Positions 4,231-18,057 are shown, numbered from the stretch's first letter. The stretch is 32,000 nt of DNA from Burkholderiaceae bacterium (GCA_965234315.1 OZ248330.1:3704688-3736687), one strand, 5' to 3'. Translations and numbers: made by a program. Notes: a model not told the origin generated them from the letters alone.

Positions 4231-4632
4231 TCAAACTTCCCAATCTTCGATTAGTAAGCCTTGGACTCTACTGAATTCGCCTGTATTGTGGGTGATCAGA
4301 GTTGCTTTATTGGCGCGTGCAATTGCGGCTATCAACAAGTCATTCGCCCCGATCAAATTGCCTTGGGTGGTAAGGTCTGCGCGAATCTGTGCGTAATGTT
4401 CAGCGGCGTTATCGTCAAACTCAAAACTACGTAACGGCGAAAATAGTTTTTGTAGTAATTGGTAATTACTTTCTTTTTGCTCGCTGCGTAGCGCACCAAA
4501 CAAAAGCTCAGCCTTCACCACGCTGCATAGCGCAATATCCTCAGGACGAAGTTGCATAATGTGGCTACGCACAGTGAGGTTTTTACGCTGCCATAACTGA
4601 ATGCAGGCGTTGGTATCGAGCAGGTACGTCAA
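4231..4632 (-). CDS. vapC: PIN-domain type II toxin VapC
   Basis: 133 aa. It starts M.YLLDTN and has later acidic residues typical of PIN nucleases. Its ATG overlaps the upstream antitoxin stop by 4 nt (ATGA). Confidence 0.85.
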   Translation of the reverse strand: MTYLLDTNACIQLWQRKNLTVRSHIMQLRPEDIALCSVVKAELLFGALRSEQKESNYQLLQKLFSPLRSFEFDDNAAEHYAQIRADLTTQGNLIGANDLLIAAIARANKATLITHNTGEFSRVQGLLIEDWEV

Positions 4633-4859
4633 TTAAAGCTCTGTCTTGTTTCGAGGTTTAATTCTGAGGGCCTTGTTTGTGACTCGCCTTGCCAAGCATC
4701 AAACAGCTCAAAGTAGCCTGCCGGCCACTGGTTTTGTACACCTGTTTCGCGCTTAATAATCTCTGCTAAATATTTAGACAGTGTTAACTTCGCTCGCTTT
4801 GCTTGAATGCGTATTTGCGCTTCGATTTCGTCTGGCACGTAAAAATGTAGCTGTGACAT
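4629..4859 (-). CDS. vapB: Type II antitoxin, ribbon-helix-helix-like (VapB-type partner of VapC)
   Basis: 76 aa. The N-terminal strand-helix-helix pattern is LHFYVPDEIEAQIRIQAKRAKLTLSKYLAEIIKRE. It is translationally coupled to vapC. Confidence 0.7.
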   Translation of the reverse strand: MSQLHFYVPDEIEAQIRIQAKRAKLTLSKYLAEIIKRETGVQNQWPAGYFELFDAWQGESQTRPSELNLETRQSFN

Positions 4860-4919: not shown

Positions 4920-4993
4920 CAAAACATTTAAATGTCAATGCCCACAGCCGAAACCCACTGTTTTTTTCAAATTTCTGATTTTATTGATAATTT

Positions 4994-5038
4994 TGGTGGG
5001 CGGTACAAGTTTCGAACTTGTGACCCCTGCCGTGTGAA
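4994..5038 (-). repeat. Displaced 3' half of tRNA-Val (left att repeat of the island)
   Basis: Gap-free alignment to 17983-18027 with 37/45 identical, including a perfect 17-nt block at 5022-5038 that matches 18011-18027. It retains a foldable T-arm (ACAAG/TTCGAAA/CTTGT), the ACCGCCC acceptor strand and CCA. Confidence 0.8.
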
Positions 5039-5318: not shown

Positions 5319-5349
5319 ATCGCAACCAGCTAATGCTGCTGGTTGCGAT
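5319..5349 (-). terminator. Probable rho-independent terminator for the minus-strand operon ending at 5489
   Basis: Perfect 12-bp stem ATCGCAACCAGC / GCTGGTTGCGAT with a 7-nt loop. On the minus strand it is followed by a moderately T-rich tract (CGTTTCGTGTTT). Confidence 0.45.
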
Positions 5350-5472: not shown

Positions 5473-5492
5473 CGTCACCTAAGTTACGTTAC
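5473..5492. repeat. Copy of the island near-palindromic site (CGTCACCTAAGTTACGTTAC), same orientation as the 13138 copy
   Basis: 18/20 identical to the reverse complement of 14053-14072 (CGTTACCTAAGTAACGTTAC), or 20/24 with flanks. It overlaps the stop codon of CDS 5489..5938. Confidence 0.6.
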
Positions 5493-5938
5493 CCAACACC
5501 CCACTGCTTGCGTAAAGCCATGCCTGTGTACGGTCGCACTGGTTGCTGTGGCATCAGCTTGGTCTTAGCTGCGCTGGGCAGCTGTGCGACAGGCGATGCG
5601 TTAGGCATAGGTGGACGCACTTGAGATTGAGCTGGAACTGGCACTGACTGCTGTGCTGGCGCAGGTGTTTTGTTGCTCACAGCCATATTCGCAGCTGTCG
5701 CAGTATTTTTGGGCTTAGGCGGCATACGGGGTGCTGGTGGTGCTGAACGTGGGCTAGACGCTGTTTTCGTGCGTTTGCTACGTGGCTTTTTACTTGCCTT
5801 CAATCGCTCTTGCCGCTCTTGCTCTTTTTGTTCAGCAGCTTCATCAGCAATTGCAGTCCACGTGCTGTCGATAATTCGCCGTAGCAAACCCAATTGTTCG
5901 TCCGCATCAGTAAATTCTCTTAGTCGCATTGTCATCAC
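5489..5938 (-). CDS. Hypothetical protein with a short structured N-terminus and a long Pro/Ala/Ser/Lys-rich tail
   Basis: 149-aa ORF. AGGTGA is placed 5-6 nt before the fourth codon, so the likely start is ATG 5929 (MRLREFTDADEQLGLL...). It is the last gene of the minus-strand operon. No family recognised. Confidence 0.5.
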   Translation of the reverse strand: MMTMRLREFTDADEQLGLLRRIIDSTWTAIADEAAEQKEQERQERLKASKKPRSKRTKTASSPRSAPPAPRMPPKPKNTATAANMAVSNKTPAPAQQSVPVPAQSQVRPPMPNASPVAQLPSAAKTKLMPQQPVRPYTGMALRKQWGVG

Positions 5939-6013
5939 CTTTAGTTATATTTATAGATGACGACATGCAGCTAACTGACGACAATTTATAGATAATGCTA
6001 AGCGCAACTGCGA

Positions 6014-6211
6014 CTACTTTTGTATTACGCTTTTCACGTAGCAGCGTCGCTGTCCACCAAACATAGCCTCAACCATTGCACGTGCTTGGCTCATGCCTGA
6101 CGCCTGCACATCCATTTGCAGATTGTTTACAGTGGTGTTGCTTTGAAAAGCACTTGAATCCGTTGGATTTGGATCTGTATTGAGTTCGTATTGCACTGTG
6201 TATGTTTGCAT
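6014..6211 (-). CDS. Hypothetical 65-aa protein
   Basis: Its ATG (6211-6209) abuts the stop (6214-6212) of the preceding gene fragment, which suggests translational coupling. No family recognised. Confidence 0.5.
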   Translation of the reverse strand: MQTYTVQYELNTDPNPTDSSAFQSNTTVNNLQMDVQASGMSQARAMVEAMFGGQRRCYVKSVIQK

Positions 6212-6544
6212 TTATTTCTGCCGCTCTTGTTGCCGTTGAAAGCCTTTTAGTTCTGCCAGGTCTTTAGCGTTAACTTTGGAGTGTTGTAACGTAAATGCAC
6301 TTTTCTCATCAGTTAATCCTTTCAGCGCAATAATTTTTCCATGTCGATCCATTGCCTCTTGCATGTCAATTATTAGCTCTAAGTTAGTACTCAAACTACC
6401 TAGTATGCCTGTCCATCGCTCAATATTAGTATCCCTCCAAATCTCATATAAATAATTCCGAAACAGATCATTTAATTGATCCATATCGTCGAAACTATTG
6501 CTTGTTACAAGAGCTATGTATTTTCTAACTTCCTGTATTCCTAC
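6212..6544 (-). pseudogene. 3' fragment of the IS21-interrupted gene for a 246-aa N-terminally membrane-anchored protein
   Basis: Track ORF 6212..6607 starts inside the IS. From 6544 downward it reads VGIQEVRKY.... Removing the IS and one target-duplication copy joins it in frame to 9426..9012 (...DGESVG|IQEVRKY...). Confidence 0.8.
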
Positions 6545-6616
6545 TGTTAATTTGCGCTGAATCCTGACCCAGGATTTGCATCTAATTTTGACCCACCCAG
6601 TTTTCAAAATTCTAGG

Positions 6617-7393
6617 TCAATTTGTCACTGTTACGGGCTTTTTTCTCTCCTTTTTAGCTTGAGTTGAACTGTTCTTGAATCGATAGCTTTCATTTCCTGT
6701 CTCCACGATGTGGCAGTGATGGGTTAGCCGATCAAGCAGCGCAGTCGTCATCTTGGCATCGCCGAACACAGACGCCCATTCGGTAAAACTTAAATTAGTC
6801 GTAATGATGACACTGGTTCTTTCGTAGAGCTTGCTGAGTAGATGGAATAGCAAGGCGCCACCGTTCTGACTAAATGGTAAATATCCCAGCTCATCCAGAA
6901 TGACTAGGTCGGCATACATCAACCGTAGTGCAAGTTGCCCTGCTTTACCTGCAGCCTTCTCTTGCTCAAGTGCGTTTACCAATTCAATCGTGGAGAAGAA
7001 ACGTACACGCTGGCGATGGTGTTCAATGGCTTGAACGCCAATTGCAGTGGCTAGGTGTGTTTTACCGGTACCTGGTCCACCAACCAACACAACATTTTGA
7101 GACGATTCAATGAACTCACATCTGTGTAATTGTCGGATGAGCGCTTCGCTTGCATCGCTGCAACCAAAGTCAAACCCGGCAATGTCACGGTAGGCCGGGA
7201 ATCTTGCAGACTTCATTTGATACGCTTGTGACCGCACTTCACGCTCTGCGATCTCCGCCTTTAGTAATCCAGACAGCACCAGCGCAGCTGACTTGTACGC
7301 CGGTGAGTCCTGAGACGCTAAATCCTCTAGCGCTTGAGCCATGCCGTGTAGCTTTAACTTCTTTAGCATCTCTGCCATGACATTAGGCTGCAT
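6617..7393 (-). CDS. istB: IS21-family helper ATPase IstB
   Basis: Walker [11 protein letters not shown] and Walker [10 protein letters not shown], with DnaA/AAA-like IstB architecture. The likely start is ATG 7393 or 7378, overlapping the istA stop. Confidence 0.9.
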
Positions 7394-8897
7394 AGTGCTG
7401 CTCCCTGAGTGTGTCATAACGACCAACGTTGGCTTGTGGTTCGATGTTTAGAACGATGGCTGCCGGTGCCTCAATCGGTGGCACCGGTGCTGCGTCTAGC
7501 AGTCGGCTTAGAATATTTAGAATCGTTTGCTTTGAAGGCACACCGGCCTCTAGTGCCAACTCGACAGCTGTCAGAACTGCTTGTTCATCATGCAATAGAA
7601 CGAGCGCCAGGACCTCAACCATCTCGCGGTCACCACCGGGGTGCTTGATAAGCCGCGCCTGAAGCCGTTTGAAGGCCTCTGGAAACTCAGCAAAGGGTGC
7701 GCCGTTGCGCAAAGCTCCGGGCTTACGCTGCAGAACAGCCAAATAGTGCCGCCAATCGTAATAAGTAAATCCCGGACTGGCGTGGCTTCGGTTGATGTGT
7801 CGCTCATGTTCTGCAATGACTTGCCCCTCGGCAACAAACACCAAACGCCTCGGATAGACCTTCAAACTTACAGCTCGATTAGCAAACGAGGCGGGAACGC
7901 TGTAGCGATTGCGCTCGAAGGTTACTAAGCAAGTTGGTGAGACCCGTTTGGTGTTCTCTACATAGCCATCAAAGGGTTGCCCAACCTGCATCAAGTGTGG
8001 TCGCTCATCAGACCAGATGTTCCAGATCGTATCGTCCTGTTCGGGGTGTTGGATTTGCTGCCACAGCAACACGCACTGATCGGCCAACCAATCATTAAGT
8101 GCGTCAAGGGAACCAAACGGTGGAACCGTTTGCCATAGCCGGTGCCGGCTGTCACGAACGTTCTTCTCAATCTGTCCCTTCTCCCAACCCGAGGCGGGAT
8201 TACAGAACTCAGCATCGAAGAGGTAATGGCTGACCATGGCACTAAATTTGGCATTGACCTCACGCACTTTACCGGGCTTGACCCGATCAACGGCGGTCTT
8301 CATGTTGTCGTAGATGCCTCGCCTAGGGATTCCGCCCCAAGCCACAAAGGCATGGTGGTGAGCATCGAACAGCATCTCGTGCGTTTGAAGGAGATACGCC
8401 CTTAGAAAGAACGCCCGACTGTGGCTTAGTTTGAACTGGGCGACCTGCAGTTTGGTGCGCTCGCCGTTGATCACGGCCCAGTCTTCGCTCCAGTCGAACT
8501 GGAACGCTTCGCCCGGGCTAAAGCGCAGCGGCACAAAGGTGCCGAGGGATGCCGTACGCTCTCGCTCCCGCTCTTCTTGTCGCCACTTTCTAGCAAAGGC
8601 GGCCACCCGATCGTATGAACCAGTAAATCCTAAAGCACAGAGGTCTGCGTGGATTTGTTTTAAGGTGCGCCGTTGCTTGCGCGAACGAGAGGTCTCTTTC
8701 TTTAGCCACTCGCTTAGCTTGGCCGCAAAACCATCCAACTTGCTCGGACTTTGCCGTGACGGGTAGATCGGCAGCACCGCGTCGTTGCGTAAATACCGTC
8801 GGACGGTGTTTCGGGATATGCCAAGCCGGCTGGCGATCTCACGCAGAGAAACCTTGTCGCGCAGATGCCAGCGTCGTATTACGGTCAATATTGCCAT
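7383..8897 (-). CDS. istA: IS21-family transposase IstA
   Basis: N-terminal HTH ([20 protein letters not shown]), a DDE-type core, and about 500 aa length. The likely start is ATG 8897 ([10 protein letters not shown]...) within ORF 7383..8927. Confidence 0.9.
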
Positions 8898-9011
8898 GTC
8901 AATCACTCCAAATCTCCTGCTCAGCACCCCGAGCAGGTCAGTGTTCTACATGGGTCAATATTCGATGCAAATTACCCCTCTAAGTGGGTCAGTTTTCGGT
9001 GCAAATTAACA

Positions 9012-9426
9012 TTCCTACGCTTTCTCCATCAAACGTTTGATACGCACGGGTAGCTTTAACTAGACTGTCGTTGCTCAGAAATATATTTTCAATTTCCACA
9101 TTAGTTATTTTTTCCCAAGGATAGACTGCGTACTTGCTTGGGCGTGGATACAAATTGTTACCGGCAGCGTCTTCGCCTAAACATATCTCTCTAAATGCCC
9201 TAGCTTGTACATTTCGATTATCTACATCAAAACCAGCTATTTTGAGATCAGCCAAATGCTTTTTAAATTGAGCCTCAACTTGTTTGTCAAAGTCACCCCA
9301 AGCCTTTTTCGTAAAGTCTTTGTTGTATCCCTCTGCTTTTTCTTTACGCTTTCTTAAATAAATTACAACAACACAGCCCACTAGAAACAAAACCGAAATG
9401 ATTAGCTTTATGTTTTCAAAATCCAT
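9012..9426 (-). pseudogene. 5' fragment (codons 1-138) of the IS21-interrupted membrane-anchored protein gene
   Basis: GGAGG lies 5 nt upstream of ATG 9426. There is one N-terminal TM helix (IKLIISVLFLVGCVVVIYL). The reading frame runs into the IS and stops after 7 IS-encoded codons (track ORF 8989..9426). Confidence 0.8.
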
Positions 9427-9506
9427 ACTGTCCTCCGATTTTTCTTTGCGCTTGACACCATGTAAGCTGACGCCTACTTTGCGAATGCGTACAGATAATT
9501 AATAAA

Positions 9507-9671
9507 TTATTTTGTTGTTTTAAAAAGCGATCCGTTCCTTACGTCTAATCGAAAGTACTGACGGCAACTTGAACATTGAACAGGTGTTGTTCCATTGTTT
9601 GATGCAGACTTAAATGTGCCTGATGCACTGCAGTGGGGGCATGAAAGGACAAACTGTGGGGTCGAAGACAT
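9507..9671 (-). CDS. Unlisted 54-aa zinc-ribbon protein (CPHC...CSSC, MJ0042-type-like)
   Basis: My codon-by-codon translation gives MSSTPQFVLSCPHCSASGTFKSASNNGTTPVQCSSCRQYFRLDVRNGSLFKTTK*. AGGAG lies 7 nt upstream of the ATG. It is the first gene of the minus-strand operon, divergent from the XRE gene. It falls below the 60-aa cutoff of the track. Confidence 0.55.
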   Translation of the reverse strand: MSSTPQFVLSCPHCSASGTFKSASNNGTTPVQCSSCRQYFRLDVRNGSLFKTTK

Positions 9672-9683
9672 TCTTGCGCTCCT

Positions 9684-9698
9684 AGTTGTTACCTACGT
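9684..9698. repeat. Partial copy of the island site (AGTTGTTACCTAcgt) in the XRE / zinc-ribbon divergent control region
   Basis: The 12 nt AGTTGTTACCTA are identical to 13134-13145. The second half-site is degenerate. Confidence 0.45.
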
Positions 9699-9716
9699 TT
9701 ATTTGCAACATCGCTG

Positions 9717-9735
9717 ATATCCTAAATTGGGATAT
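9717..9735. promoter_or_regulatory. Palindrome ATATCC-N7-GGATAT 27 nt upstream of the XRE start; possible operator
   Basis: Read directly. It overlaps a TATACT -10-like hexamer. Function is inferred from position only. Confidence 0.3.
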
Positions 9736-9761
9736 ACTAGAACGGGATTCAAAATGTTGCA

Positions 9762-9992
9762 ATGTCCAAGTACATTCAACGTGAATCTACACTTCGTAAG
9801 CTATTGCGGGCTGGAAGATTGCGTTCTAATTTGAGACAAGTAGACGTTGCAAAGACGCTTGGTAAACCACAGTCGTACATTGCTAAGGTTGAAAACGGCG
9901 AAAGGCAATTGAGCTTTATAGAAGCGTTAGATTTTTGCGACGCCATCAAGTTAGATGCACACGAACTGGTGGACAAGCTAACTAAAGAATAA
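9762..9992 (+). CDS. XRE-family (Cro/CI-type) helix-turn-helix transcriptional regulator
   Basis: 76 aa. The LRQVDVAKTLGKPQSYIAKVENGERQLSFIE pattern is the canonical XRE HTH. Confidence 0.8.
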   Translation: MSKYIQRESTLRKLLRAGRLRSNLRQVDVAKTLGKPQSYIAKVENGERQLSFIEALDFCDAIKLDAHELVDKLTKE

Positions 9993-10010: not shown

Positions 10011-10454
10011 CTACTTGCCAAATGCCTTGCGTGTACGCAAACTTGCTTCAGCAATCGCATCGTCCAGTTCGCCGTTAGCGGCAGCAGCCATCAGCACCTT
10101 CAGCGTATTAATCAATTCAGCTGTGTTGTTGAGCTCCACAGCATTCTTGCCACCTTTAGCCAGCGTCAGTGTGCTTGCGCCATACTTCACAGCCAAATTG
10201 ATTTTGCCAGTTTCTGCAGTCCAGTACCACTCACGCACACGCCGCTGCACTTCCACAACAGTTTTTGTACCTGTTGCTGCGTCCACAACTGTACGCAATC
10301 GTTTAGCCGTGTAAACGTCACCTGTCTGCTGTGCGTTACACAACTCCAATTGCTCTTGCAGTTTTGCACACAGCTTCATGCGCCGTTGTACCGCTGGACT
10401 AGCTGCACGACTTTTACGTGCTGCTACGAACTTCAAGTTTGCCAATGCACTCAT
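10011..10454 (-). CDS. Hypothetical protein (147 aa), of a kind I recall from genomic islands of other proteobacteria
   Basis: AGGAG lies 6 nt upstream of the ATG. The layout is a basic N-terminus (KFVAARKSRAASPAVQRR), a central beta-rich region, and a C-terminal helix. The family name is not confidently recalled. Confidence 0.6.
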   Translation of the reverse strand: MSALANLKFVAARKSRAASPAVQRRMKLCAKLQEQLELCNAQQTGDVYTAKRLRTVVDAATGTKTVVEVQRRVREWYWTAETGKINLAVKYGASTLTLAKGGKNAVELNNTAELINTLKVLMAAAANGELDDAIAEASLRTRKAFGK

Positions 10455-10604
10455 TTCCTGCTCCTGTGTATGTTTAAGCTACATACACAGTCTGCTGCCT
10501 GTCTTTTGCGATGTCGATGGCTTTTGGCAAGATTTTTTATGAATGCTTATGGAAAGATATGGAAAGGCAATAAAAAATTGGGTTTTATTAGGTGAAGACT
10601 AAAT

Positions 10605-11198
10605 ATGTGTATGACACAACATACACATTTGCAGCCACTTCAGCACAGCTACAGGCAATTCATTTACCCATATGCACAGCACATCACATTTGCGGTGACA
10701 CTGACAATGAAAATGCGGGCAAAGGTACGTGTTAAGCGATTTGATAATTATGGTGATGAATACTACGAATACTGGGTTACGTTGGACGATGAAAAAATAC
10801 GCAGCACAATTTGCAGATTTACAGCCAGACTCACAGCATTGCTTTATGGCAATCATGCACGACACAAAAACAAACGGGCGTGGGCAACGCCGCTGCTTAT
10901 AGTTGCTGTAGAGGGGCGCAATACACACAAGCGTCAGCACTTGCATTTGGCATTAGGCAACATACCTGATGCAAAACGCACACACATTGAATCGTTTATT
11001 AAGCAGGCTTGGGCTGATTGTGATTTTGGTTACAAGCAGACTGAAACAAAGTTGCTATTTGATGGTTATGGCTGGTTGGACTACATGACAAAAGAAGTGG
11101 GATATACGGACAACGATGCGCTAGACGTTGCATCCAGCACTATCCCAAAATTTATACAAGACAGCATTTGTACAGAAAGTCGCTTGCTCACTGCATAA
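10605..11198 (+). CDS. Candidate HUH-superfamily endonuclease (rolling-circle Rep / inovirus Gp2-like motif order)
   Basis: 197 aa with AGGTGA 9 nt upstream. The motif order is ITFAVTLT (motif-1-like), QHLHLALG (H-u-H) and WLDYMTKE (Y-x-x-K), with spacing typical of small RCR initiators. This is motif-level evidence only. Confidence 0.5.
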   Translation: MCMTQHTHLQPLQHSYRQFIYPYAQHITFAVTLTMKMRAKVRVKRFDNYGDEYYEYWVTLDDEKIRSTICRFTARLTALLYGNHARHKNKRAWATPLLIVAVEGRNTHKRQHLHLALGNIPDAKRTHIESFIKQAWADCDFGYKQTETKLLFDGYGWLDYMTKEVGYTDNDALDVASSTIPKFIQDSICTESRLLTA

Positions 11199-11554
11199 AT
11201 TAACAATTAGATTGCACTGCGATTGAGGTTGGAGACCTTTAAATACTATTGCTACGACTGCAATATTCAAATAGCTAACAATCAAGCTAATCAGTAAAAC
11301 TAGCCAGCACCTAAACCATATACGAATACATGATGACTATACAAAGTATAGAAAGCACCAGTTAGCTCACCATCGCAACAACCACAACGCTGTCATCAAG
11401 CTCATCAACTACTTCATCAGCTTGTCGCAGCGTACCCACATGTACTTCAGGCACTAAAAAACAACGAATCGCAGCTAAATACAAATATATGGAAATACAC
11501 AGAACGTTATATTTTTTGAGCAGAACGAACTGAAGCAGTTGAATTCATTGAGGA

Positions 11555-12232
11555 ATGTACTTGAACACAAGAATAAAAAAAAACATCGCAAAGAAAAAAA
11601 ATAATACTTATGCTTTTAATACAGCGAAATATTGGATTAAAGGCAAAAAAAACGCAATGAAGCAAGCGAAAACACTTACAGCACCTGAAATACGCAGAGT
11701 GCTGGACTACATAGCAACACGCAAGTACGCAGCCAGAAACAGAGCCATGTTGTTGATGACGCACTTGGCTGGCATGCGTGTTGGTGAGGTGGCAAGTTTG
11801 CGTTACAGAGACGTGATCAATACAGATCACACAGTACGTGCTGAGATACTGTTGAGTGCAGAGCAGACGAAAGGCAATGAAGCACGTACTGTGTACATAA
11901 ACGAACGACTACGCAAAGAGCTCACCACTTACATTCAGTCACAACGCTTCAGCACTCACCCACGTACTAAATTATTTGGCACACAGAAACGCCAGATCGA
12001 CGGGTTTAGCGCCAACTCACTAGCCCAGTACTTCCATCACTTGTACAAAGGCGCAGGCATCGCTGGTGCCAGCAGTCACAGCGGTCGTCGCAGCTTTATC
12101 ACCAACTTAGCCGGCAAAGGCGTTGGGGTGCGTGTGATTATGGGCTTGAGCGGGCATCGTGCGCTGAGCAGCGTACAGCACTACATTGACTGTAGCGATG
12201 ACATGAAACGGCGTGCTGTGGAATTGGTATAA
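11555..12232 (+). CDS. Small tyrosine recombinase with only the catalytic domain (FimB/FimE-sized)
   Basis: Catalytic boxes are AGMRVGEVASLRYRDV (Arg), SSHSGRRSF (H-x-x-R) and LSGHRALSSVQHYI (His...Tyr). The probable start is ATG 11657 (MKQAKTLTAPEIRRVL..., 191 aa), which parallels the FimB N-terminus. There is no N-terminal core-binding domain. Confidence 0.8.
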   Translation: MYLNTRIKKNIAKKKNNTYAFNTAKYWIKGKKNAMKQAKTLTAPEIRRVLDYIATRKYAARNRAMLLMTHLAGMRVGEVASLRYRDVINTDHTVRAEILLSAEQTKGNEARTVYINERLRKELTTYIQSQRFSTHPRTKLFGTQKRQIDGFSANSLAQYFHHLYKGAGIAGASSHSGRRSFITNLAGKGVGVRVIMGLSGHRALSSVQHYIDCSDDMKRRAVELV

Positions 12233-12234
12233 AA

Positions 12235-12260
12235 AAAGCGCAGCAATTACGCTGCGCTTT
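12235..12260. terminator. Bidirectional rho-independent terminator between the convergent genes
   Basis: Stem AAAGCGCAGC / GCTGCGCTTT with a 6-nt loop, flanked by an A-run on the left and a T-run on the right. Confidence 0.6.
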
Positions 12261-12275
12261 TCCTTAATGCCCTAC

Positions 12276-13115
12276 TTATGCAGCATCCGCATCTTTAGCT
12301 GCTTTGTTATCGTTTGCAGCCTTCGCAAATCTACTTACCTCCGCTTTTAGCTTGTTCTCAGCCGCATATTCCTGCTTAATTTTCTCATAGTGCTGCATCT
12401 CACCGTCTTTCATAAAATACTCCAAACCCGCTTTATAGTTTGCCAGCCTTGCAAGTAGCGTTTGTTCTAGCTCACTATCCATCGGCAAAATATCTACCAC
12501 GTTGTATTTGCTGCCATCGTGTGTACAAACCATATATCTAAATTTGCACCTATTTGCTGCGTCATGCATACGTGCACGTAGTTTTTCATCAATTTCAAAT
12601 GTCGCTAGTTTTTGCTGCCCCTCATCTGCAAGTAACTTCGCTACAAACGCACCCATATGCATATTGCCAACGTTATTTTTTTCCTCTTCTGCACGTTCTA
12701 CTTCACCCACACGCAACTTATCAATGCCGCCGTTAGCTTCAATGTAATCAGCTAGCCCGTCTGCACTAATACTATTGTTTATTGCTTGTTGCAGTACACG
12801 TTTGTAAGTAAAAATTGTTTTTCTATGTATTTTACGCAGCACTAATCGCACAATCACACCCAAGTCGCCTGTCTTAGCAGTTGTTTTAACTGTGTACGTT
12901 TCTTTAAGTACTTTACGCATTGCAAGTATTACTGCATCTTTGTCGCTGCGTTCAAGCACACCTTCTGCGTATCGCAAAATTTCTGCCAACATCGCATACA
13001 GCTCCTTGTTTGCTCTGTGCACATAAGTATCTACATATTGCTTGTACTGTTCGTGCACAACATTGCTGCTATCAATTACTGTCTTGTACTTCTCAACGTT
13101 CGCTTTCTTAGCCAT
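12276..13115 (-). CDS. Hypothetical protein (279 aa), helical with an acidic/Lys-rich C-terminus
   Basis: AAGGAAG RBS lies 5 nt upstream of the ATG. No family recognised. The 16-bp site lies 22 nt upstream of the start. Confidence 0.6.
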   Translation of the reverse strand: MAKKANVEKYKTVIDSSNVVHEQYKQYVDTYVHRANKELYAMLAEILRYAEGVLERSDKDAVILAMRKVLKETYTVKTTAKTGDLGVIVRLVLRKIHRKTIFTYKRVLQQAINNSISADGLADYIEANGGIDKLRVGEVERAEEEKNNVGNMHMGAFVAKLLADEGQQKLATFEIDEKLRARMHDAANRCKFRYMVCTHDGSKYNVVDILPMDSELEQTLLARLANYKAGLEYFMKDGEMQHYEKIKQEYAAENKLKAEVSRFAKAANDNKAAKDADAA

Positions 13116-13137
13116 TTTTACTTCCTTATTTAAAGTT

Positions 13138-13153
13138 GTTACCTAAGTAACGT
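13138..13153. repeat. 16-bp site GTTACCTAAGTAACGT (left member of the perfect inverted pair)
   Basis: Exact reverse complement of 14057-14072. It is internally a 14-bp near-palindrome, GTTAC-CTAA-GTAAC. Confidence 0.85.
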
Positions 13154-13265
13154 AGGGTTTGAAATATGCAAAAAACACTTTGTTTTCAGCATGTATCCAT
13201 TGTATTTTTTAGTGATTTTTGCTGATAATATCTGTTTGTAAACAATTGATAGTGTTAGCATTTAT

Positions 13266-14057
13266 ATGAACAAAATAACCACAGCTGTCAAGCAAGCCAA
13301 TTCAAAACGACGTGCATTTGCCACACGTCGCTATCCACTGTTTGGACGGGGCGTGTACAGCGATGCCAGCCCGCCTGCTAGCGTCATCAACAGTCCGTTT
13401 TATTGGTGGTTTAAGTTTCTACAACTTAACGATGAGTATGCAAAGGCTGTCGCAGGCAAAACCAGCCGTGTGTCACGTCGGGTTGCGAAGGATTTTGGTG
13501 ACGTGCGGAACACGGACTTTAAAAGCTGGTGGTACGCACACGTGGATTTGTTTGCTGAGCCGCCCAGCGATTACAAGATGGTTGTGGCAACCACAGCGGA
13601 TGAGCTAGTGGCGTTTGGTGACAGCACAGCCGTCAACTTGGTGGTGCCATTAACTTGGACTAATGTGGGGCTCAAACGCAGATTTGCTGAGATTATTGAC
13701 AAGCTGGTGGCTAAGACGCCAGCTGGAGTTCGTGCACACACAGCCAGTGAGGCCAAGTACAGGCTGGGACGCAAATGGAGCACAGTGGGCTTTCAACATG
13801 CGTACGATGTTTACGTTGCCAGACAAGCTGCGCAGGCAGAGATGGCAGAAACAGGCAAGAAAGTGGCTTGGGCTGATGTTGCTATACGTGCGGGATTGCC
13901 AGCTGCCAAGCGGATACAGAGAGGAGCTAGTGCGTTGGACACTGGGGAGGCCAGACGGGTTTTAACTATTTTGGCTGTCAGGCACTATCGGCAAGCTCAA
14001 GCCTTTATTGCTGCCAGTACCAGCACAGCGTTTCCTGCTGCTAAATCCATCAAGTAA
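13266..14057 (+). CDS. Hypothetical protein (263 aa), basic, Trp-rich N-terminal region (SPFYWWFKFLQLNDEY)
   Basis: Long ORF with coherent composition. It is divergent from 12276..13115. No family confidently recognised. Confidence 0.6.
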   Translation: MNKITTAVKQANSKRRAFATRRYPLFGRGVYSDASPPASVINSPFYWWFKFLQLNDEYAKAVAGKTSRVSRRVAKDFGDVRNTDFKSWWYAHVDLFAEPPSDYKMVVATTADELVAFGDSTAVNLVVPLTWTNVGLKRRFAEIIDKLVAKTPAGVRAHTASEAKYRLGRKWSTVGFQHAYDVYVARQAAQAEMAETGKKVAWADVAIRAGLPAAKRIQRGASALDTGEARRVLTILAVRHYRQAQAFIAASTSTAFPAAKSIK

Positions 14058-14072
14058 CGTTACTTAGGTAAC
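14057..14072. repeat. 16-bp site ACGTTACTTAGGTAAC (right member of the perfect inverted pair)
   Basis: Exact reverse complement of 13138-13153. It overlaps the last base of the TAA stop of CDS 13266..14057. Confidence 0.85.
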
Positions 14073-14107
14073 GATTGACTGCGGCTTTAATGTGACGCAT
14101 CGACGGA

Positions 14108-14599
14108 CTAACTACGAGGAACAATTACACCTGCTTGTGTCAACTCTTCTACCCGCTTGTCGTATCTAACACCGTGTTGGTTTTTATCTATTCCCCAAAC
14201 ATTTTCATTTAGTAATCGCTCTTCAGCAAGTTGCGCCGCACTACTCTTGCTTTGAGCATTTGCATGACTACGTATGTGCTCAACTGTCAAAACTAATTGC
14301 GGACCTTGTTCATCTACGGTCGTTTTCATTCTGTAACCTTCACTTATATTTTCGCTGAAAGATCGCCTCACAATTTGACCATCTGCGTTATAAGTTCTGC
14401 TGCTTTCATACTGGCGCTGAGCATCTAACAAATTTGCAAGCTCTTGCTTTGTTTTTGCACTCAGCGCCAAATACTGTTGTGCATCAACAAAATTTGTATG
14501 CTCTTGTGCTGTTTGTTCGCTGAACGCAGTGGCGCTAGTTTTTCTTGTAGAGCAAAACAGTTCTTGCCATTTATTTTTTAACCACTTGCTCAGTTGCAT
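14108..14599 (-). CDS. Hypothetical protein (163 aa)
   Basis: ORF 68 nt downstream of the Sel1 gene on the same strand. No signal peptide and no recognised motifs. Confidence 0.5.
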   Translation of the reverse strand: MQLSKWLKNKWQELFCSTRKTSATAFSEQTAQEHTNFVDAQQYLALSAKTKQELANLLDAQRQYESSRTYNADGQIVRRSFSENISEGYRMKTTVDEQGPQLVLTVEHIRSHANAQSKSSAAQLAEERLLNENVWGIDKNQHGVRYDKRVEELTQAGVIVPRS

Positions 14600-14667
14600 T
14601 CTCTATCCCCATCTGTTCATCAGCGGATTACTTGCGACTATGTAACTTAATGTTTAGTTTTACAACT

Positions 14668-16440
14668 TCAATCGCACTTTTTGAAGTTTTGTGCTTGGCA
14701 TTCTCTTGCAAGTTTTTGTGCCTCTGCTATTTGTTGCGGAGTCATTTTTTTTGCAACAATCATGCGATTTTTTGCTGCTTGGGCGTCGCCTTTTACTGCC
14801 GCTAAATTGAACCACATGTGCGCCCGCACGTAATCTTGTACAACACCTTTTCCGTCGCCGTACATAATGCCAATATTTAACTGAGCGCTTGCATTGCCTG
14901 CTTCTGCTGCCAACTTATACCAACGCATTGCTTCAGCGTAGTCTTGTACAACACCCTGTCCGTAGTTGTACATATATCCAATATTTGCATAAGCAACTGC
15001 TTGGCCTTGTGCTGCTGCCAACTTATACCAACGCATGGCTTCGGCGTAATCTTGCACAACACCTTTTTGGTTGTAGTACGTTGCACCAATGTTTAACTGA
15101 GCAACTGCATCACCCTGTGCTGCTGCCAGCTTATACCAACGCATGGCTTCAGCGTAGTCTTGTACAACACCCTGTCCGTTGTCATACATATATCCAATCG
15201 CAAACTGAGCACTTGCTTGACCTTGCGCTGCTGCCAATTTGTACCAACGCATGGCTTCAGCGTAGTCTTGTACGACACCCTGTCCGTAGTTGTACATCAC
15301 GCCAATGTTTAACTGAGCAACCGCATCACGCTGTGCTGCTGCCAACTTATACCAACGCATGGCTTCAGCGTAGTCTTGTACGACATTTTGTCCGTTGTTG
15401 TACATTCCGCCAATGTATAACTGAGCACTTGCATTGCCTTGTGTTGCTGCCAACTTATACCAACGCAATGCCTCTTCTACATTTTTGTTTGTCCCTAACC
15501 CTTCTAAATAAATTTTTCCCAAGTTCATTTGCGCAGCTGCGTCTGATTTGTCAGCTGCAAGTTTTGAAAGACGCATGGCTTCTGTGTAATTTTTTTCAAC
15601 CCCAGTACCTGTTGTGTAATTGAGAGCCAAATTACTTTGTGCAACTACAGAACCCCGCTCCGCCGCTAACTTGTACCGTCTATTCGCCTCTTTGTAGTCT
15701 TGCTTTACTCCCAACCCAGTAAAATACATATAGCCAATTGCAGATTGCGCATTTGGATCATCTTTCTCTGCCAATTTAAATAAACGCAATGCCTCCGTAA
15801 AATCTTTTCCAACACCCTCACCTTTTGCGTACATGTATCCCAACATTGTTTTGGCAGCTGCGTCTCCAGTCTCCGCAACCAGCCCAAACCATAGCATTGC
15901 CTCCCCAACATCTTTTTTTGTTCCAATGCCATCATAGTTATAGGCACCTACTTTTAGTTGAGCACTATAGTTACCCTTTTCCGCTGCTGCCAGGTATAAG
16001 TTGTAGGCCTCTTTGTCATCTTTCTTTAGCCCACCTTCTCCAGTTGCATACATGTCTGCCAAGTGTATTGATGCAGCAGCATCTCCGTTATTTGCAGCCA
16101 CTCTAAGCCATCGCACCGCTTCTACATTATTTTTTTCTGTACCATTTCCCCTGTAATAATTTATTCCCAAATTTGACTGCGCTGTTGTATTACCTTGCTC
16201 AGCTGCAAGTTTATATAACCTGTTCGCTTCTTTATAGTCCTGCTGTACTCCTATCCCGTTAAAGTACATATAACCAAGTGCTGACTGCGAATTTGCGTCG
16301 CCCAATTCAGTTGCAGTACGCCAATGCTTGATCGCCGCTGCGTAATCTTTTTTGTTGTAAGCAGCATGCCCATCCTCAAAACCGCTAGCCCACGCAGCAG
16401 AACTAAACATCAACAGCAGCGCAATCAATATTTTATTCAT
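14668..16440 (-). CDS. Secreted Sel1-like repeat (SLR/TPR-like) protein with about 15 repeats
   Basis: Signal peptide MNKILIALLLMFSSAAWA. It carries iterated 36-aa units of the form A..WY.KAA.QG.A.AQ..LG.MY..G.GV..D. AGGA RBS is present. Its start is 13 nt after the integrase stop. Confidence 0.9.
   Translation of the reverse strand: MNKILIALLLMFSSAAWASGFEDGHAAYNKKDYAAAIKHWRTATELGDANSQSALGYMYFNGIGVQQDYKEANRLYKLAAEQGNTTAQSNLGINYYRGNGTEKNNVEAVRWLRVAANNGDAAASIHLADMYATGEGGLKKDDKEAYNLYLAAAEKGNYSAQLKVGAYNYDGIGTKKDVGEAMLWFGLVAETGDAAAKTMLGYMYAKGEGVGKDFTEALRLFKLAEKDDPNAQSAIGYMYFTGLGVKQDYKEANRRYKLAAERGSVVAQSNLALNYTTGTGVEKNYTEAMRLSKLAADKSDAAAQMNLGKIYLEGLGTNKNVEEALRWYKLAATQGNASAQLYIGGMYNNGQNVVQDYAEAMRWYKLAAAQRDAVAQLNIGVMYNYGQGVVQDYAEAMRWYKLAAAQGQASAQFAIGYMYDNGQGVVQDYAEAMRWYKLAAAQGDAVAQLNIGATYYNQKGVVQDYAEAMRWYKLAAAQGQAVAYANIGYMYNYGQGVVQDYAEAMRWYKLAAEAGNASAQLNIGIMYGDGKGVVQDYVRAHMWFNLAAVKGDAQAAKNRMIVAKKMTPQQIAEAQKLARECQAQNFKKCD
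14845..15384. repeat. Five near-identical in-frame 108-bp tandem repeats inside the Sel1 gene (a sixth, more diverged unit runs to about 15492)
   Basis: The motif CAACTTATACCAACGCAT recurs at exactly 108-bp spacing (e.g. 14911 and 15019). It encodes VVQDYAEAMRWYKLAAAQG.A.AQ.NIG.MY..GQG. Confidence 0.85.
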
Positions 16441-16453
16441 CTCAATCCTTCAT

Positions 16454-17833
16454 TCATTTACCCTGTTCACCATCATAATCTTTACGTTTTCTATGCCGCT
16501 TGCTCTGCAGCATGCCAATATTCATCTCACCGCTTAAGGGCTTAGCGTAAAACCTGTCAATCATCTCCACACTAGTACGTGCGTTTCTTGCCAGCACTAA
16601 AGTATTCACACCCTCACCATACATCAACCTATACATAATACAAGTGTGCCGTAACGAATAAAGTGTTCTTGCTTCACCATTGCCGCCTATAGCCAATCCC
16701 GTATCCCACATCAATATTTCAAATTGTCGCTGTAGCTGTTTAAGTGCGTAATCTCTCTGCTTTTCGCCATATTCGGGCAAAAATACATAGTCATCGTCTT
16801 TGGCCATATTGCCATGCTCTGCGTGATATTTTTTATGCAGCAGGTACACATGGACTGCATATGGCATTGTTGTAATGGGATCGCTATGATTTTTAGTTGG
16901 CGGTATGCGTAAACGCAAATACTTGTAGTCAGCATCAATCACATCAATGTGTTTGTGCTTCATAAATTTAATATCAGTCGGTCGTATGTAGCTAGACGTC
17001 ATAAACACAATCAGCCTTCGCAAGTCTTCCGTCATAGTTACTCTACGCATCAAACTGCCCAGCTTTGTTTTTTTACTTTCTTTGTCTATGTATTGTGTCT
17101 GCGTTTCACCTTTGTTATTTTTATACTTACGAACCTCTATCGTTTTTCCTAAATATCTCTGTGCAGCATTCCACACCTTTCTATATTCGCCAGTCGTAAA
17201 CCATCCTCTTGCTTTATCTTTCACACGCACACTGGGAAACTCTGGCACTGACTGGATGAGCTTGTTACGATGTGCAAATGACAGCACTTTGCGAACTAAC
17301 CGCATGTAAGCACTGACGGTAGAAGTGCTTAGCTGTTGTTTACTCAGTTCGCTTAAATAATCGCCCAACACAGCGTAATCAACATCACTAACATTTAGAT
17401 GTCTAAAGTACGGCAGAACACTTTTGTCAAAACGGTACTTGGTATTGTCGTACGTAATTTGCGTCAGCTCACCACGTGCCAACTTGCCCTTCTCTTCCTT
17501 CAATAGCTCTTGTGTGCAAGTCTCAAAATTCGCCTTGCCACCAGCAGTAATTCCGTGCCTCAAGTTATACGTAACGGTGTCGTAAAAATCTTTAGCAAAA
17601 GCCAGTGCTTTGCGCTTGTCTGTTTGCTTAGTTGTTTTACGAATTGTCTTGCCACTCACATACAACCGCACCCACCAGTACTTGCTAGCTGGCAATGTGT
17701 ATATGAAAAGTGTTTGTGGAAAGCCAGGTACGTACGCTGTCTCCGTAGCAAGCGTTCTATGTCTTGTCTGCGTAGCAGTGCTTTTCGTAGCTGTTTTAGT
17801 CTTTTTCATCACAATCATCGCCTTGTAACCCAC
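16454..17833 (-). CDS. int: Tyrosine integrase (phage/island type with an N-terminal arm-binding-like domain)
   Basis: 459-aa ORF with C-terminal LYSLRHTCIMY (H-x-x-R region) and MIDRFYAKP (catalytic Tyr region). It lies 150 nt from the tRNA-Val 3' end. Confidence 0.9.
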   Translation of the reverse strand: MGYKAMIVMKKTKTATKSTATQTRHRTLATETAYVPGFPQTLFIYTLPASKYWWVRLYVSGKTIRKTTKQTDKRKALAFAKDFYDTVTYNLRHGITAGGKANFETCTQELLKEEKGKLARGELTQITYDNTKYRFDKSVLPYFRHLNVSDVDYAVLGDYLSELSKQQLSTSTVSAYMRLVRKVLSFAHRNKLIQSVPEFPSVRVKDKARGWFTTGEYRKVWNAAQRYLGKTIEVRKYKNNKGETQTQYIDKESKKTKLGSLMRRVTMTEDLRRLIVFMTSSYIRPTDIKFMKHKHIDVIDADYKYLRLRIPPTKNHSDPITTMPYAVHVYLLHKKYHAEHGNMAKDDDYVFLPEYGEKQRDYALKQLQRQFEILMWDTGLAIGGNGEARTLYSLRHTCIMYRLMYGEGVNTLVLARNARTSVEMIDRFYAKPLSGEMNIGMLQSKRHRKRKDYDGEQGK

Positions 17834-17926: not shown

Positions 17927-17982
17927 TTTCTCTTTTAAAAAAATCCAAATCATCTGCAAGTGATTGATTTTACAGAGGAATT

Positions 17983-18057
17983 TGGTAGGCGGTATTGGTT
18001 TCGAACCAACGACCCCTGCCGTGTGAAGGCAGTGCTCTACCACTGAGCTAACCGCCC
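17983..18057 (-). tRNA. tRNA-Val: tRNA-Val (anticodon CAC), 75 nt with encoded CCA
   Basis: Hand-folded cloverleaf: GGGCGGT-TA-GCTC-AGTGGTA-GAGC-A-CTGCC-TTCACAC-GGCAG-GGGTC-GTTGG-TTCGAAA-CCAAT-ACCGCCT-A-CCA. It has U33, A37 and A73. There is a G1-U72 wobble. Confidence 0.9.

Follow-up and report, generated by a model that had tools for sequence, protein, structure and literature searches.

A divergent XRE/zinc-ribbon cassette in the AlpA slot of a tRNA-integrated island of freshwater Burkholderiaceae

The window analysed here, a 32,000-nucleotide (nt) stretch of DNA from the freshwater Burkholderiaceae isolate MCERE10 (GCA_965234315.1, OZ248330.1:3704688–3736687), contains an integrative island at tRNA-Val. 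The distal arm of the island is a module consisting of a gene for a small XRE-family helix-turn-helix (HTH) repressor and four minus-strand genes that diverge from it. As judged by comparison of the sequences, the XRE gene and the divergent genes for a zinc-ribbon protein and a membrane-anchored protein of 246 amino acids (aa), to which the gene for a 65-aa protein may be added, are an alternative cassette in the slot that holds the regulator AlpA in three sister islands. We propose, with a probability of roughly 0.45, that the cassette is a repressor-controlled operon of the activation phase, located in the island's regulatory slot and made up of a gene set of two origins. The initial annotation of the window had named the XRE gene, a 90-bp control region, the zinc-ribbon open reading frame (ORF), a 246-aa gene split by an insertion sequence (IS), the 65-aa and Pro-rich genes, and a hairpin, and all of these are present:

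9762–9992, plus strand: XRE-family HTH repressor gene, 76 aa (CAN1558275.1), HTH_3 (PF01381)
9672–9761: divergent control region, exactly 90 bp, between the XRE and zinc-ribbon genes
9507–9671, minus strand: 54-aa zinc-ribbon ORF (CPHC...CSSC), first gene of the operon, AGGAG 7 nt before the ATG
9012–9426, minus strand: 5' part of the 246-aa gene (codons 1–138), N-terminal membrane anchor and conserved membrane-proximal half, GGAGG 5 nt before the ATG
6545–9011, minus strand: IS21-family element, 2467 bp, with istA at 7383–8927, istB at 6617–7426, and 27-nt terminal inverted repeats
6212–6537, minus strand: 3' part of the 246-aa gene (codons 139–246), helical C-terminal half, two alleles
6014–6211, minus strand: gene for the 65-aa beta-beta-alpha-beta protein (MCERE10_03302), ATG adjoining the TAA of the 246-aa gene
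5489–5929, minus strand: Pro-rich gene, 146 aa (MCERE10_03301), island backbone, ATG at 5929
5319–5349, minus strand: hairpin located 140 nt past the last gene, candidate terminator whose U tract is weak

The cassette and the AlpA slot

Sister islands were recovered by searching with two proteins encoded nearby, DUF6641 and the 197-aa protein. In the sister locus L015, which lies at tRNA-Leu, DUF6641 leads through a 51-aa gene to a Pro-rich gene (125 aa) beside the integrase, and on its other side the oppositely oriented 197-aa gene leads through a 222-aa recombinase gene to cargo with an MmeI-type enzyme. In L017, DUF6641 is followed by AlpA, a 52-aa gene, and a Pro-rich gene, and L016 and L018 have DUF6641, AlpA, and the 52-aa gene in the same order without the Pro-rich gene. 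Phage_AlpA (PF05930) is present in L016–L018, and a tblastn search with the L016 AlpA found no AlpA in the window.

In a blastn comparison, the repaired module (i.e. with the IS and one copy of its target duplication removed) is 89.6 per cent identical to L015 at the nucleotide level through DUF6641, and the similarity ends at the DUF6641 stop codon. The DUF6641 gene of the window shows the same identity, 89.6 per cent, to that of L016, again up to the stop codon. Next to it, 1.6 kb of the window (the XRE, zinc-ribbon, 246-aa, and 65-aa genes) replaces 204 bp of L015 (the 51-aa gene), and similarity is back at the start of the Pro-rich gene. One DUF6641 protein sequence adjoins an AlpA cassette in L017 and L018 and an XRE cassette in L003, and both cassette types were found in a single sample (AlpA in L018 and XRE in L009).

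The sister-island comparison therefore assigns DUF6641 and the Pro-rich gene to the island backbone and, by position, places the small beta-alpha-beta gene there as well. It also rules out a single four-gene unit. The four-gene operon described in the initial annotation thus stands insofar as its genes are real and co-oriented, but they did not evolve as a single unit: the Pro-rich gene is part of the backbone, and so, by its position, is the small gene. The cassette is connected to AlpA-regulated islands (CP4-57, P4-like, and phage-inducible chromosomal island [PICI] types; PF05930) by near-identical sister islands that hold AlpA exactly in its place, whereas the window has no AlpA homologue and its backbone (DUF6641, the ~190-aa HUH-like protein, and the 222-aa short recombinase) is not that of P4 or PICIs.

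Conservation, the control region and the split 246-aa gene

The XRE gene diverging from the zinc-ribbon, 246-aa, 65-aa, and Pro-rich genes is found in loci L001–L006 and L009–L011, wherever the contigs are long enough (about ten metagenomic contigs). Co-localization of homologues elsewhere, which the initial annotation had proposed as a check, was thus found in the same order. The ratios of non-synonymous to synonymous substitution rates (dN/dS) indicate purifying selection on every ORF of the module: 0.03–0.05 for the XRE gene, 0.04–0.14 for the zinc-ribbon ORF, 0.11–0.31 for the N-terminal half of the 246-aa gene, 0.08–0.11 for the 65-aa gene, and 0.03 for the N-terminus of the Pro-rich gene. 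Conservation and dN/dS together rule out a chance-ORF reading. The 246-aa and 65-aa genes abut stop to start here but are 62–71 nt apart in L005 and L007, so this abutment is not a conserved feature, and variation in the 65-aa protein does not follow the allele of the 246-aa gene.

The XRE protein belongs to its family with an HTH_3 score of 38.1 bits (gathering cut-off 23; E = 1.6e-9). It is 95–99 per cent identical in L001–L004, L009, and L010 and 75 per cent identical in L005 and L006. Within the 90-bp control region, the palindrome ATATCC-N7-GGATAT lies at 9717–9735, and an inverted repeat, TTGCAACAT/ATGTTGCAA, lies at 9703–9711 and 9754–9762. The palindrome arms and the adjacent AATCCCGTT are invariant in five loci, including the 49-per-cent-identity relative L005, and the centre and flanks are variable; this operator-like palindrome is kept in relatives whose proteins are only 49–75 per cent identical. 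Two parts of a CI/Cro-type switch can accordingly be recognized from sequence, a divergent repressor and a conserved candidate operator palindrome. The second small HTH protein (Cro) as the first operon gene is missing, and in its place is a C4 zinc ribbon with no HTH match.

Immunity switches of temperate phages and of integrative and conjugative elements (ICEs), e.g. lambda cI/cro and ICEBs1 immR-xis, consist of an XRE/CI-type repressor divergent from an early operon. Like them, the cassette has a divergent small HTH_3 repressor and a short region with a conserved palindrome, and it lies on a tRNA-adjacent element with its own integrase. Unlike them, it has a zinc-ribbon gene rather than a Cro or Xis HTH gene at the head of its operon and no recognizable ImmA-type protease or antirepressor. 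Its later genes are without homologues among known early, replication, and transfer genes.

The zinc-ribbon ORF is unannotated in the public record, and its exact sequence is missing from the protein collection. It is kept in eight loci at 75–98 per cent identity and differs from that of L001 by seven synonymous and one non-synonymous changes (dN/dS = 0.04). In L005, the XRE and zinc-ribbon proteins are the best-conserved parts of the cassette (75 per cent each, vs 51 per cent for the 246-aa and 49 per cent for the 65-aa protein). Profile matches of the zinc-ribbon protein are generic and below threshold (PF13717, 20.8 bits with a cut-off of 30.3; TIGR02098, 15.8 bits with a cut-off of 20.9). 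An Ogr/Delta-type zinc-finger activator was considered and rejected, as there was no Pfam match; the cysteine spacing also differs from that of the Ogr/Delta family.

Joining 9426..9012 to 6537..6212 of the minus strand gives 741 nt, i.e. 246 aa and a stop codon. The element that separates the two parts is flanked by a 7-bp duplication, GTAGGAA (6538–6544 and 9012–9018), and encodes proteins that match IstB_IS21 (E = 1.5e-81) and, for IstA, Mu-transpos_C_2 (E = 1.4e-16). With istA and istB, terminal inverted repeats, and a target duplication within the 4–8 bp of the family, it is an IS21 element, and it is 72–77 per cent identical to annotated plasmid IS21 elements. Intact homologues of the 246-aa protein are 242–248 aa long (with identities of 91, 74, 49, and 29 per cent), which confirms the repair. 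The claim that an IS knocks out the largest gene is upheld; all other contigs that cover the full gene have it uninterrupted. At codon 138, the IS is probably also polar on the two downstream genes, and the split together with this probable polarity would leave the cassette of MCERE10 currently non-functional. The further suggestion of selection against a costly gene goes beyond what one IS insertion in one genome can show.

Residues 8–24 of the 246-aa protein are strongly hydrophobic (mean Kyte–Doolittle value of 3.09) and are followed by RKRKEK. These features predict an N-out, C-in topology, in which a short N-terminus lies outside and most of the protein is cytoplasmic. The family is very small: at 90 per cent identity it makes up five clusters in a collection of 5.8 billion proteins, and when 1.84 billion representatives were scanned in full with HMMER, only two members besides close relatives were recovered. 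An iterated profile search added no further members, and pattern scans found none in GTDB representative genomes, IMG/VR, or JGI metagenomes. That the initial annotation had recognized no family is borne out for the 246-aa, 65-aa, and Pro-rich proteins by Pfam, PHROGs, PADLOC, and NCBIfam, and profile searches against PDB sequences gave no match for the 246-aa or 65-aa families. From an alignment of four sequences, AlphaFold2 (AF2) produced a poor, all-helical model of the 246-aa protein (predicted local distance difference test [pLDDT] score of 58.6). Across most of residues 141–246, the pLDDT is 74–88, with a dip to ~61 at 171–190. A Foldseek search of the PDB with this poor model gave no match below E = 1.

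Among close relatives, the 246-aa gene is a mosaic. Codons 1–134 and all flanking genes are 90–98 per cent identical, whereas the stretch that begins at gene nucleotide 405 and runs to the stop codon exists as two alleles with 62–70 per cent nucleotide and ~54 per cent amino-acid identity. A third C-terminal allele in L011 was considered and discarded, as the translation shows allele B. The allele breakpoint (~nt 405) lies within ~10 nt of the IS21 target site (gene nt 409–415), which we treat as a coincidence. That the protein is anchored and consists of two parts, the C-terminal of which can be exchanged, hints that it recognizes a partner that varies, and we tentatively read the C-terminal half as a partner-recognition domain.

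Both alleles also occur in a deletion derivative of the island. In L001 (3–754) and L002 (3–733), ~7 kb of the island is gone, and ~176 N-terminal codons of a window-type integrase are fused to ~90 C-terminal codons of DUF6641. The XRE, zinc-ribbon, 246-aa, 65-aa, and Pro-rich genes are all intact in these two contigs, which differ in the allele of the 246-aa C-terminal half.

The 65-aa protein has a confident beta-beta-alpha-beta AF2 model (pLDDT = 81.8). Its best structural match in BFVD is an uncharacterized protein of an uncultured member of Caudovirales (E = 1.5e-4; template-modelling score of 0.80), and a Foldseek search of the PDB returned only generic small alpha/beta matches (E >= 0.1). 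Homologues with ~50 per cent identity are located among unannotated small genes of the phage-like contigs L012 (8970–9164), L014 (10001–10201), and L013 (374–568). These contigs encode holin, endolysin, radical S-adenosylmethionine (SAM) enzymes, amidoligases, and DNA ligase, and have no 246-aa relative nearby. Pattern scans for the 65-aa family in GTDB representative genomes and IMG/VR found none.

The Pro-rich ORF extends to a GTG at 5938, but homologues and the public annotation use the ATG at 5929, which is therefore the most likely start. The protein has a conserved acidic N-terminal helix, a variable, disordered, basic Pro/Ala/Ser/Lys linker, and a short, conserved C-terminal motif, PVRPYxG..RK; its tail has a net charge of +17 and 20 per cent Pro. 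The hairpin downstream has a 12-bp stem and a folding energy of −24.5 kcal/mol (z = −3.3 vs shuffled sequences).

Readings of the cassette

We propose that the XRE protein binds the palindrome ATATCC-N7-GGATAT and would thereby silence the divergent operon for as long as the island stays integrated. Upon derepression, four proteins would be made together in an activation-phase operon: the zinc-ribbon protein, the 246-aa protein, and the two backbone proteins, the smaller of which would be a phage-like 65-aa version of the backbone small gene product. The zinc-ribbon protein may be a small DNA-binding protein that resembles Cro, an activator, or an excision factor, and the 246-aa protein would be tethered to the inner membrane and face the cytoplasm. 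The anatomy, the conservation, the composite origin, the equivalence of the slot to that of AlpA, the allele exchange, and the IS disruption are seen in the sequences; that XRE represses, what the zinc-ribbon protein does, when the operon is expressed, and what the 246-aa protein may do are the parts of this reading that we infer. If the proposal holds, islands with near-identical backbones swap their master-regulator cassette (AlpA vs XRE/zinc-ribbon), which would be a clean natural case of modular rewiring of mobile-element control.

Several points weigh against the proposed activation-phase operon. No homology reveals what any cassette protein does, and the zinc-ribbon protein, which may bind DNA, has no demonstrated DNA-binding relatives. 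A sigma-70 consensus scan of the 90-bp region found no promoter. The equivalence of the 65-aa protein to the 51/52-aa proteins comes mainly from position, as the hhalign match between them is weak (probability 30 per cent; E = 5.6e-4; 22 columns). The cassette is intact in L001 and L002 after a 7-kb loss from the island, which is unexpected if island activation were its sole role. Finally, the cassette is accessory, has a swapped domain, and lies on islands that carry restriction-modification systems, all of which would be equally expected of a payload for defence or exclusion.

As such a payload, which we regard as possible though doubtful, the inner-membrane-tethered 246-aa protein would act as sensor or effector in an anti-phage system not yet described, working by abortive infection or by superinfection exclusion, or it would exclude rival elements, with specificity set by its C-terminal half and with the XRE and zinc-ribbon proteins as regulators. 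The accessory status of the cassette within the island family, its survival in the deletion derivative, the sharp exchange of C-terminal alleles between flanks of 90–98 per cent identity, and the phage homologues of the 65-aa partner all agree with this explanation. So does the cargo of the sister loci, which is a restriction-modification system in all four loci with enough sequence: an EcoRI-like methyltransferase (MTase) with GmrSD/HNH, MmeI, Eco29kI with a C5 MTase and T5orf172, and a type I HsdRSM system. That cargo, however, sits past the short recombinase gene, in a slot other than that of the cassette, which occupies the regulatory slot of AlpA. Moreover, two alleles amount to one exchange event and demonstrate no arms race, and the extreme rarity of the 246-aa family also speaks against a defence system.

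Similarity to known systems is slight. The XRE protein weakly resembles the Control_protein and capH models of PADLOC (E = 8e-5 to 7e-3), which would suit a defence regulator. Compared with the regulators of C-protein restriction-modification systems and with CapH, though, the match reflects the generic HTH fold, and the operon has no gene for restriction-modification or for a cyclic-oligonucleotide-based anti-phage signalling system (CBASS). Among known anti-phage systems (PADLOC-DB v2), the zinc-ribbon, 246-aa, 65-aa, and Pro-rich proteins have no match, and the XRE protein has generic HTH matches only; no effector candidate has a PADLOC, Pfam, or fold match. The toxin- or defence-like function put forward in the initial annotation consequently gains no backing from protein similarity: no protein of the module is linked to either function, and the poor 246-aa model has no significant Foldseek match.

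Sie2009, P22 SieA, and lambda RexB are membrane-anchored prophage proteins of exclusion or abortive infection. Like them, the cassette encodes a single-pass or small membrane protein beside the repressor gene of an integrated element. Unlike them, the 246-aa protein has no sequence or fold similarity to these proteins, is predicted to be mostly cytoplasmic, and by its layout would be repressed rather than co-expressed with the repressor. A fuller version of the payload explanation, which appears rather unlikely, holds that the XRE/zinc-ribbon/246-aa cassette, under repressor control, is a hitherto undescribed system of defence or exclusion directed at phages or rival elements through a membrane-tethered protein whose swappable helical C-terminal domain sets the target, and that it is carried by an undescribed island family that also shuttles restriction-modification systems. 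Were the 246-aa protein shown to act in exclusion or defence, the known factors would be joined by a further, membrane-tethered class whose specificity domain can be swapped. Because the family is extremely rare, however, its importance beyond these islands would be limited.

We weighed two further explanations. We consider it quite improbable that the genes are neutral or host-adaptive passengers acquired from a phage, with no role in island biology or phage conflict. The whole cassette could stem from the immunity region of a temperate phage, and the 65-aa protein is ~50 per cent identical to proteins of phage-like contigs; but purifying selection acts on every ORF, the operator is conserved, and synteny is fixed across relatives at 49–91 per cent identity. 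Very improbable, in our estimate, is a toxin–antitoxin or addiction module that stabilizes the island, in which one operon product (e.g. the membrane protein) would be toxic and would be neutralized by XRE repression or by the 65-aa protein. A small repressor next to a membrane protein has the layout of such a module, the cassette is kept in the decayed island copies L001 and L002, and a cost would be consistent with the IS knockout. Against it, Pfam, NCBIfam, and PADLOC reveal no toxin or antitoxin domain, and the module does not qualify as a type II system. The XRE gene is divergent and not co-transcribed with the operon. The abutment of the 65-aa gene with the 246-aa gene is not conserved, the 65-aa protein varies independently of the 246-aa allele, and its family occurs alone in phage-like contigs.

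The island and its other genes

The island spans 12,989 bp with the IS and ~10.5 kb without it. Its ends and the backbone gene next to the cassette are as follows:

17983–18057, minus strand: tRNA-Val, one island end (Rfam match)
16454–17833, minus strand: 459-aa tyrosine integrase, adjoining tRNA-Val
10011–10454, minus strand: DUF6641 gene, 147 aa, backbone (PF20346, E = 1.9e-6; phrog_31551, E = 3.8e-22)
4976–5038: other island end, a 63-nt copy of the tRNA-Val 3' part and flank, 79 per cent identical (direct repeat vs 17965–18027)

A tyrosine integrase beside a tRNA gene and a far-end repeat of the tRNA 3' part identify a tRNA-integrated island, in agreement with the mobile island claimed in the initial annotation. 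The identical core of the two tRNA-Val copies (4976–5038 and 17965–18027) is the 17-nt GACCCCTGCCGTGTGAA. In the displaced copy of the tRNA-Val 3' half, the T-arm is fully paired through compensatory changes (ACAAG/CTTGT vs GTTGG/CCAAT), which indicates that one of the two copies arrived with the island from another tRNA-Val allele. An Rfam scan matched the tRNA only, and a megablast search of the island against plasmids matched the IS only. Searches for identical sequences put the window on a 4.5-Mb contig of MCERE10, and the genes that flank the island (TctC, dnaQ, and rnhA) are in keeping with Burkholderiaceae.

The DUF6641 gene is convergent with the XRE gene here and heads the same operon in the sister islands. 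A tblastn search of GenBank phages with DUF6641 and the 197-aa protein gave no match, and no literature on DUF6641 or MCERE10 was found. The 197-aa backbone protein (10605–11198, plus strand) has no match in Pfam, PHROGs, or NCBIfam. By eye, its TLT, HLHLALGN, and YMTKE motifs (in the window and L005) resemble those of HUH rolling-circle Rep proteins and relaxases, and the second His of the HUH-like motif is Asn in the L017 homologue (HFNIALGN).

Together, the window (10011–17833), L005, and L015–L018 appear to represent an undescribed family of small islands that integrate at tRNA-Val, tRNA-Asn, or tRNA-Leu, with a backbone of an integrase, a Pro-rich protein, a small protein, DUF6641, a ~190-aa HUH-like protein, and a 222–225-aa short tyrosine recombinase. 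This analysis thereby defines a small, apparently undescribed island family in freshwater Burkholderiaceae. An inovirus-like prophage was considered as an identity for the island and rejected, no Zot-like ATPase or coat-like genes being recognized.

Three cargo ORFs of the window (279, 263, and 163 aa; 12276–14599), which belong to no family in Pfam, PHROGs, PADLOC, or NCBIfam, occupy the position of the restriction-modification systems of the sister islands. The cargo region also encodes a 590-aa secreted Sel1-repeat protein (14668–16440, minus strand), whose 13 Sel1 units are encoded by 108-nt tandem repeats (14721–15668), and a 662-aa Sel1 protein likewise lies beside the AlpA cassette in L018. 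Just outside the direct repeat of the island, a VapBC-like pair (4231–4859, minus strand) consists of a 133-aa PIN-domain toxin and an overlapping 76-aa partner that resembles ribbon-helix-helix (RHH)/NikA proteins.

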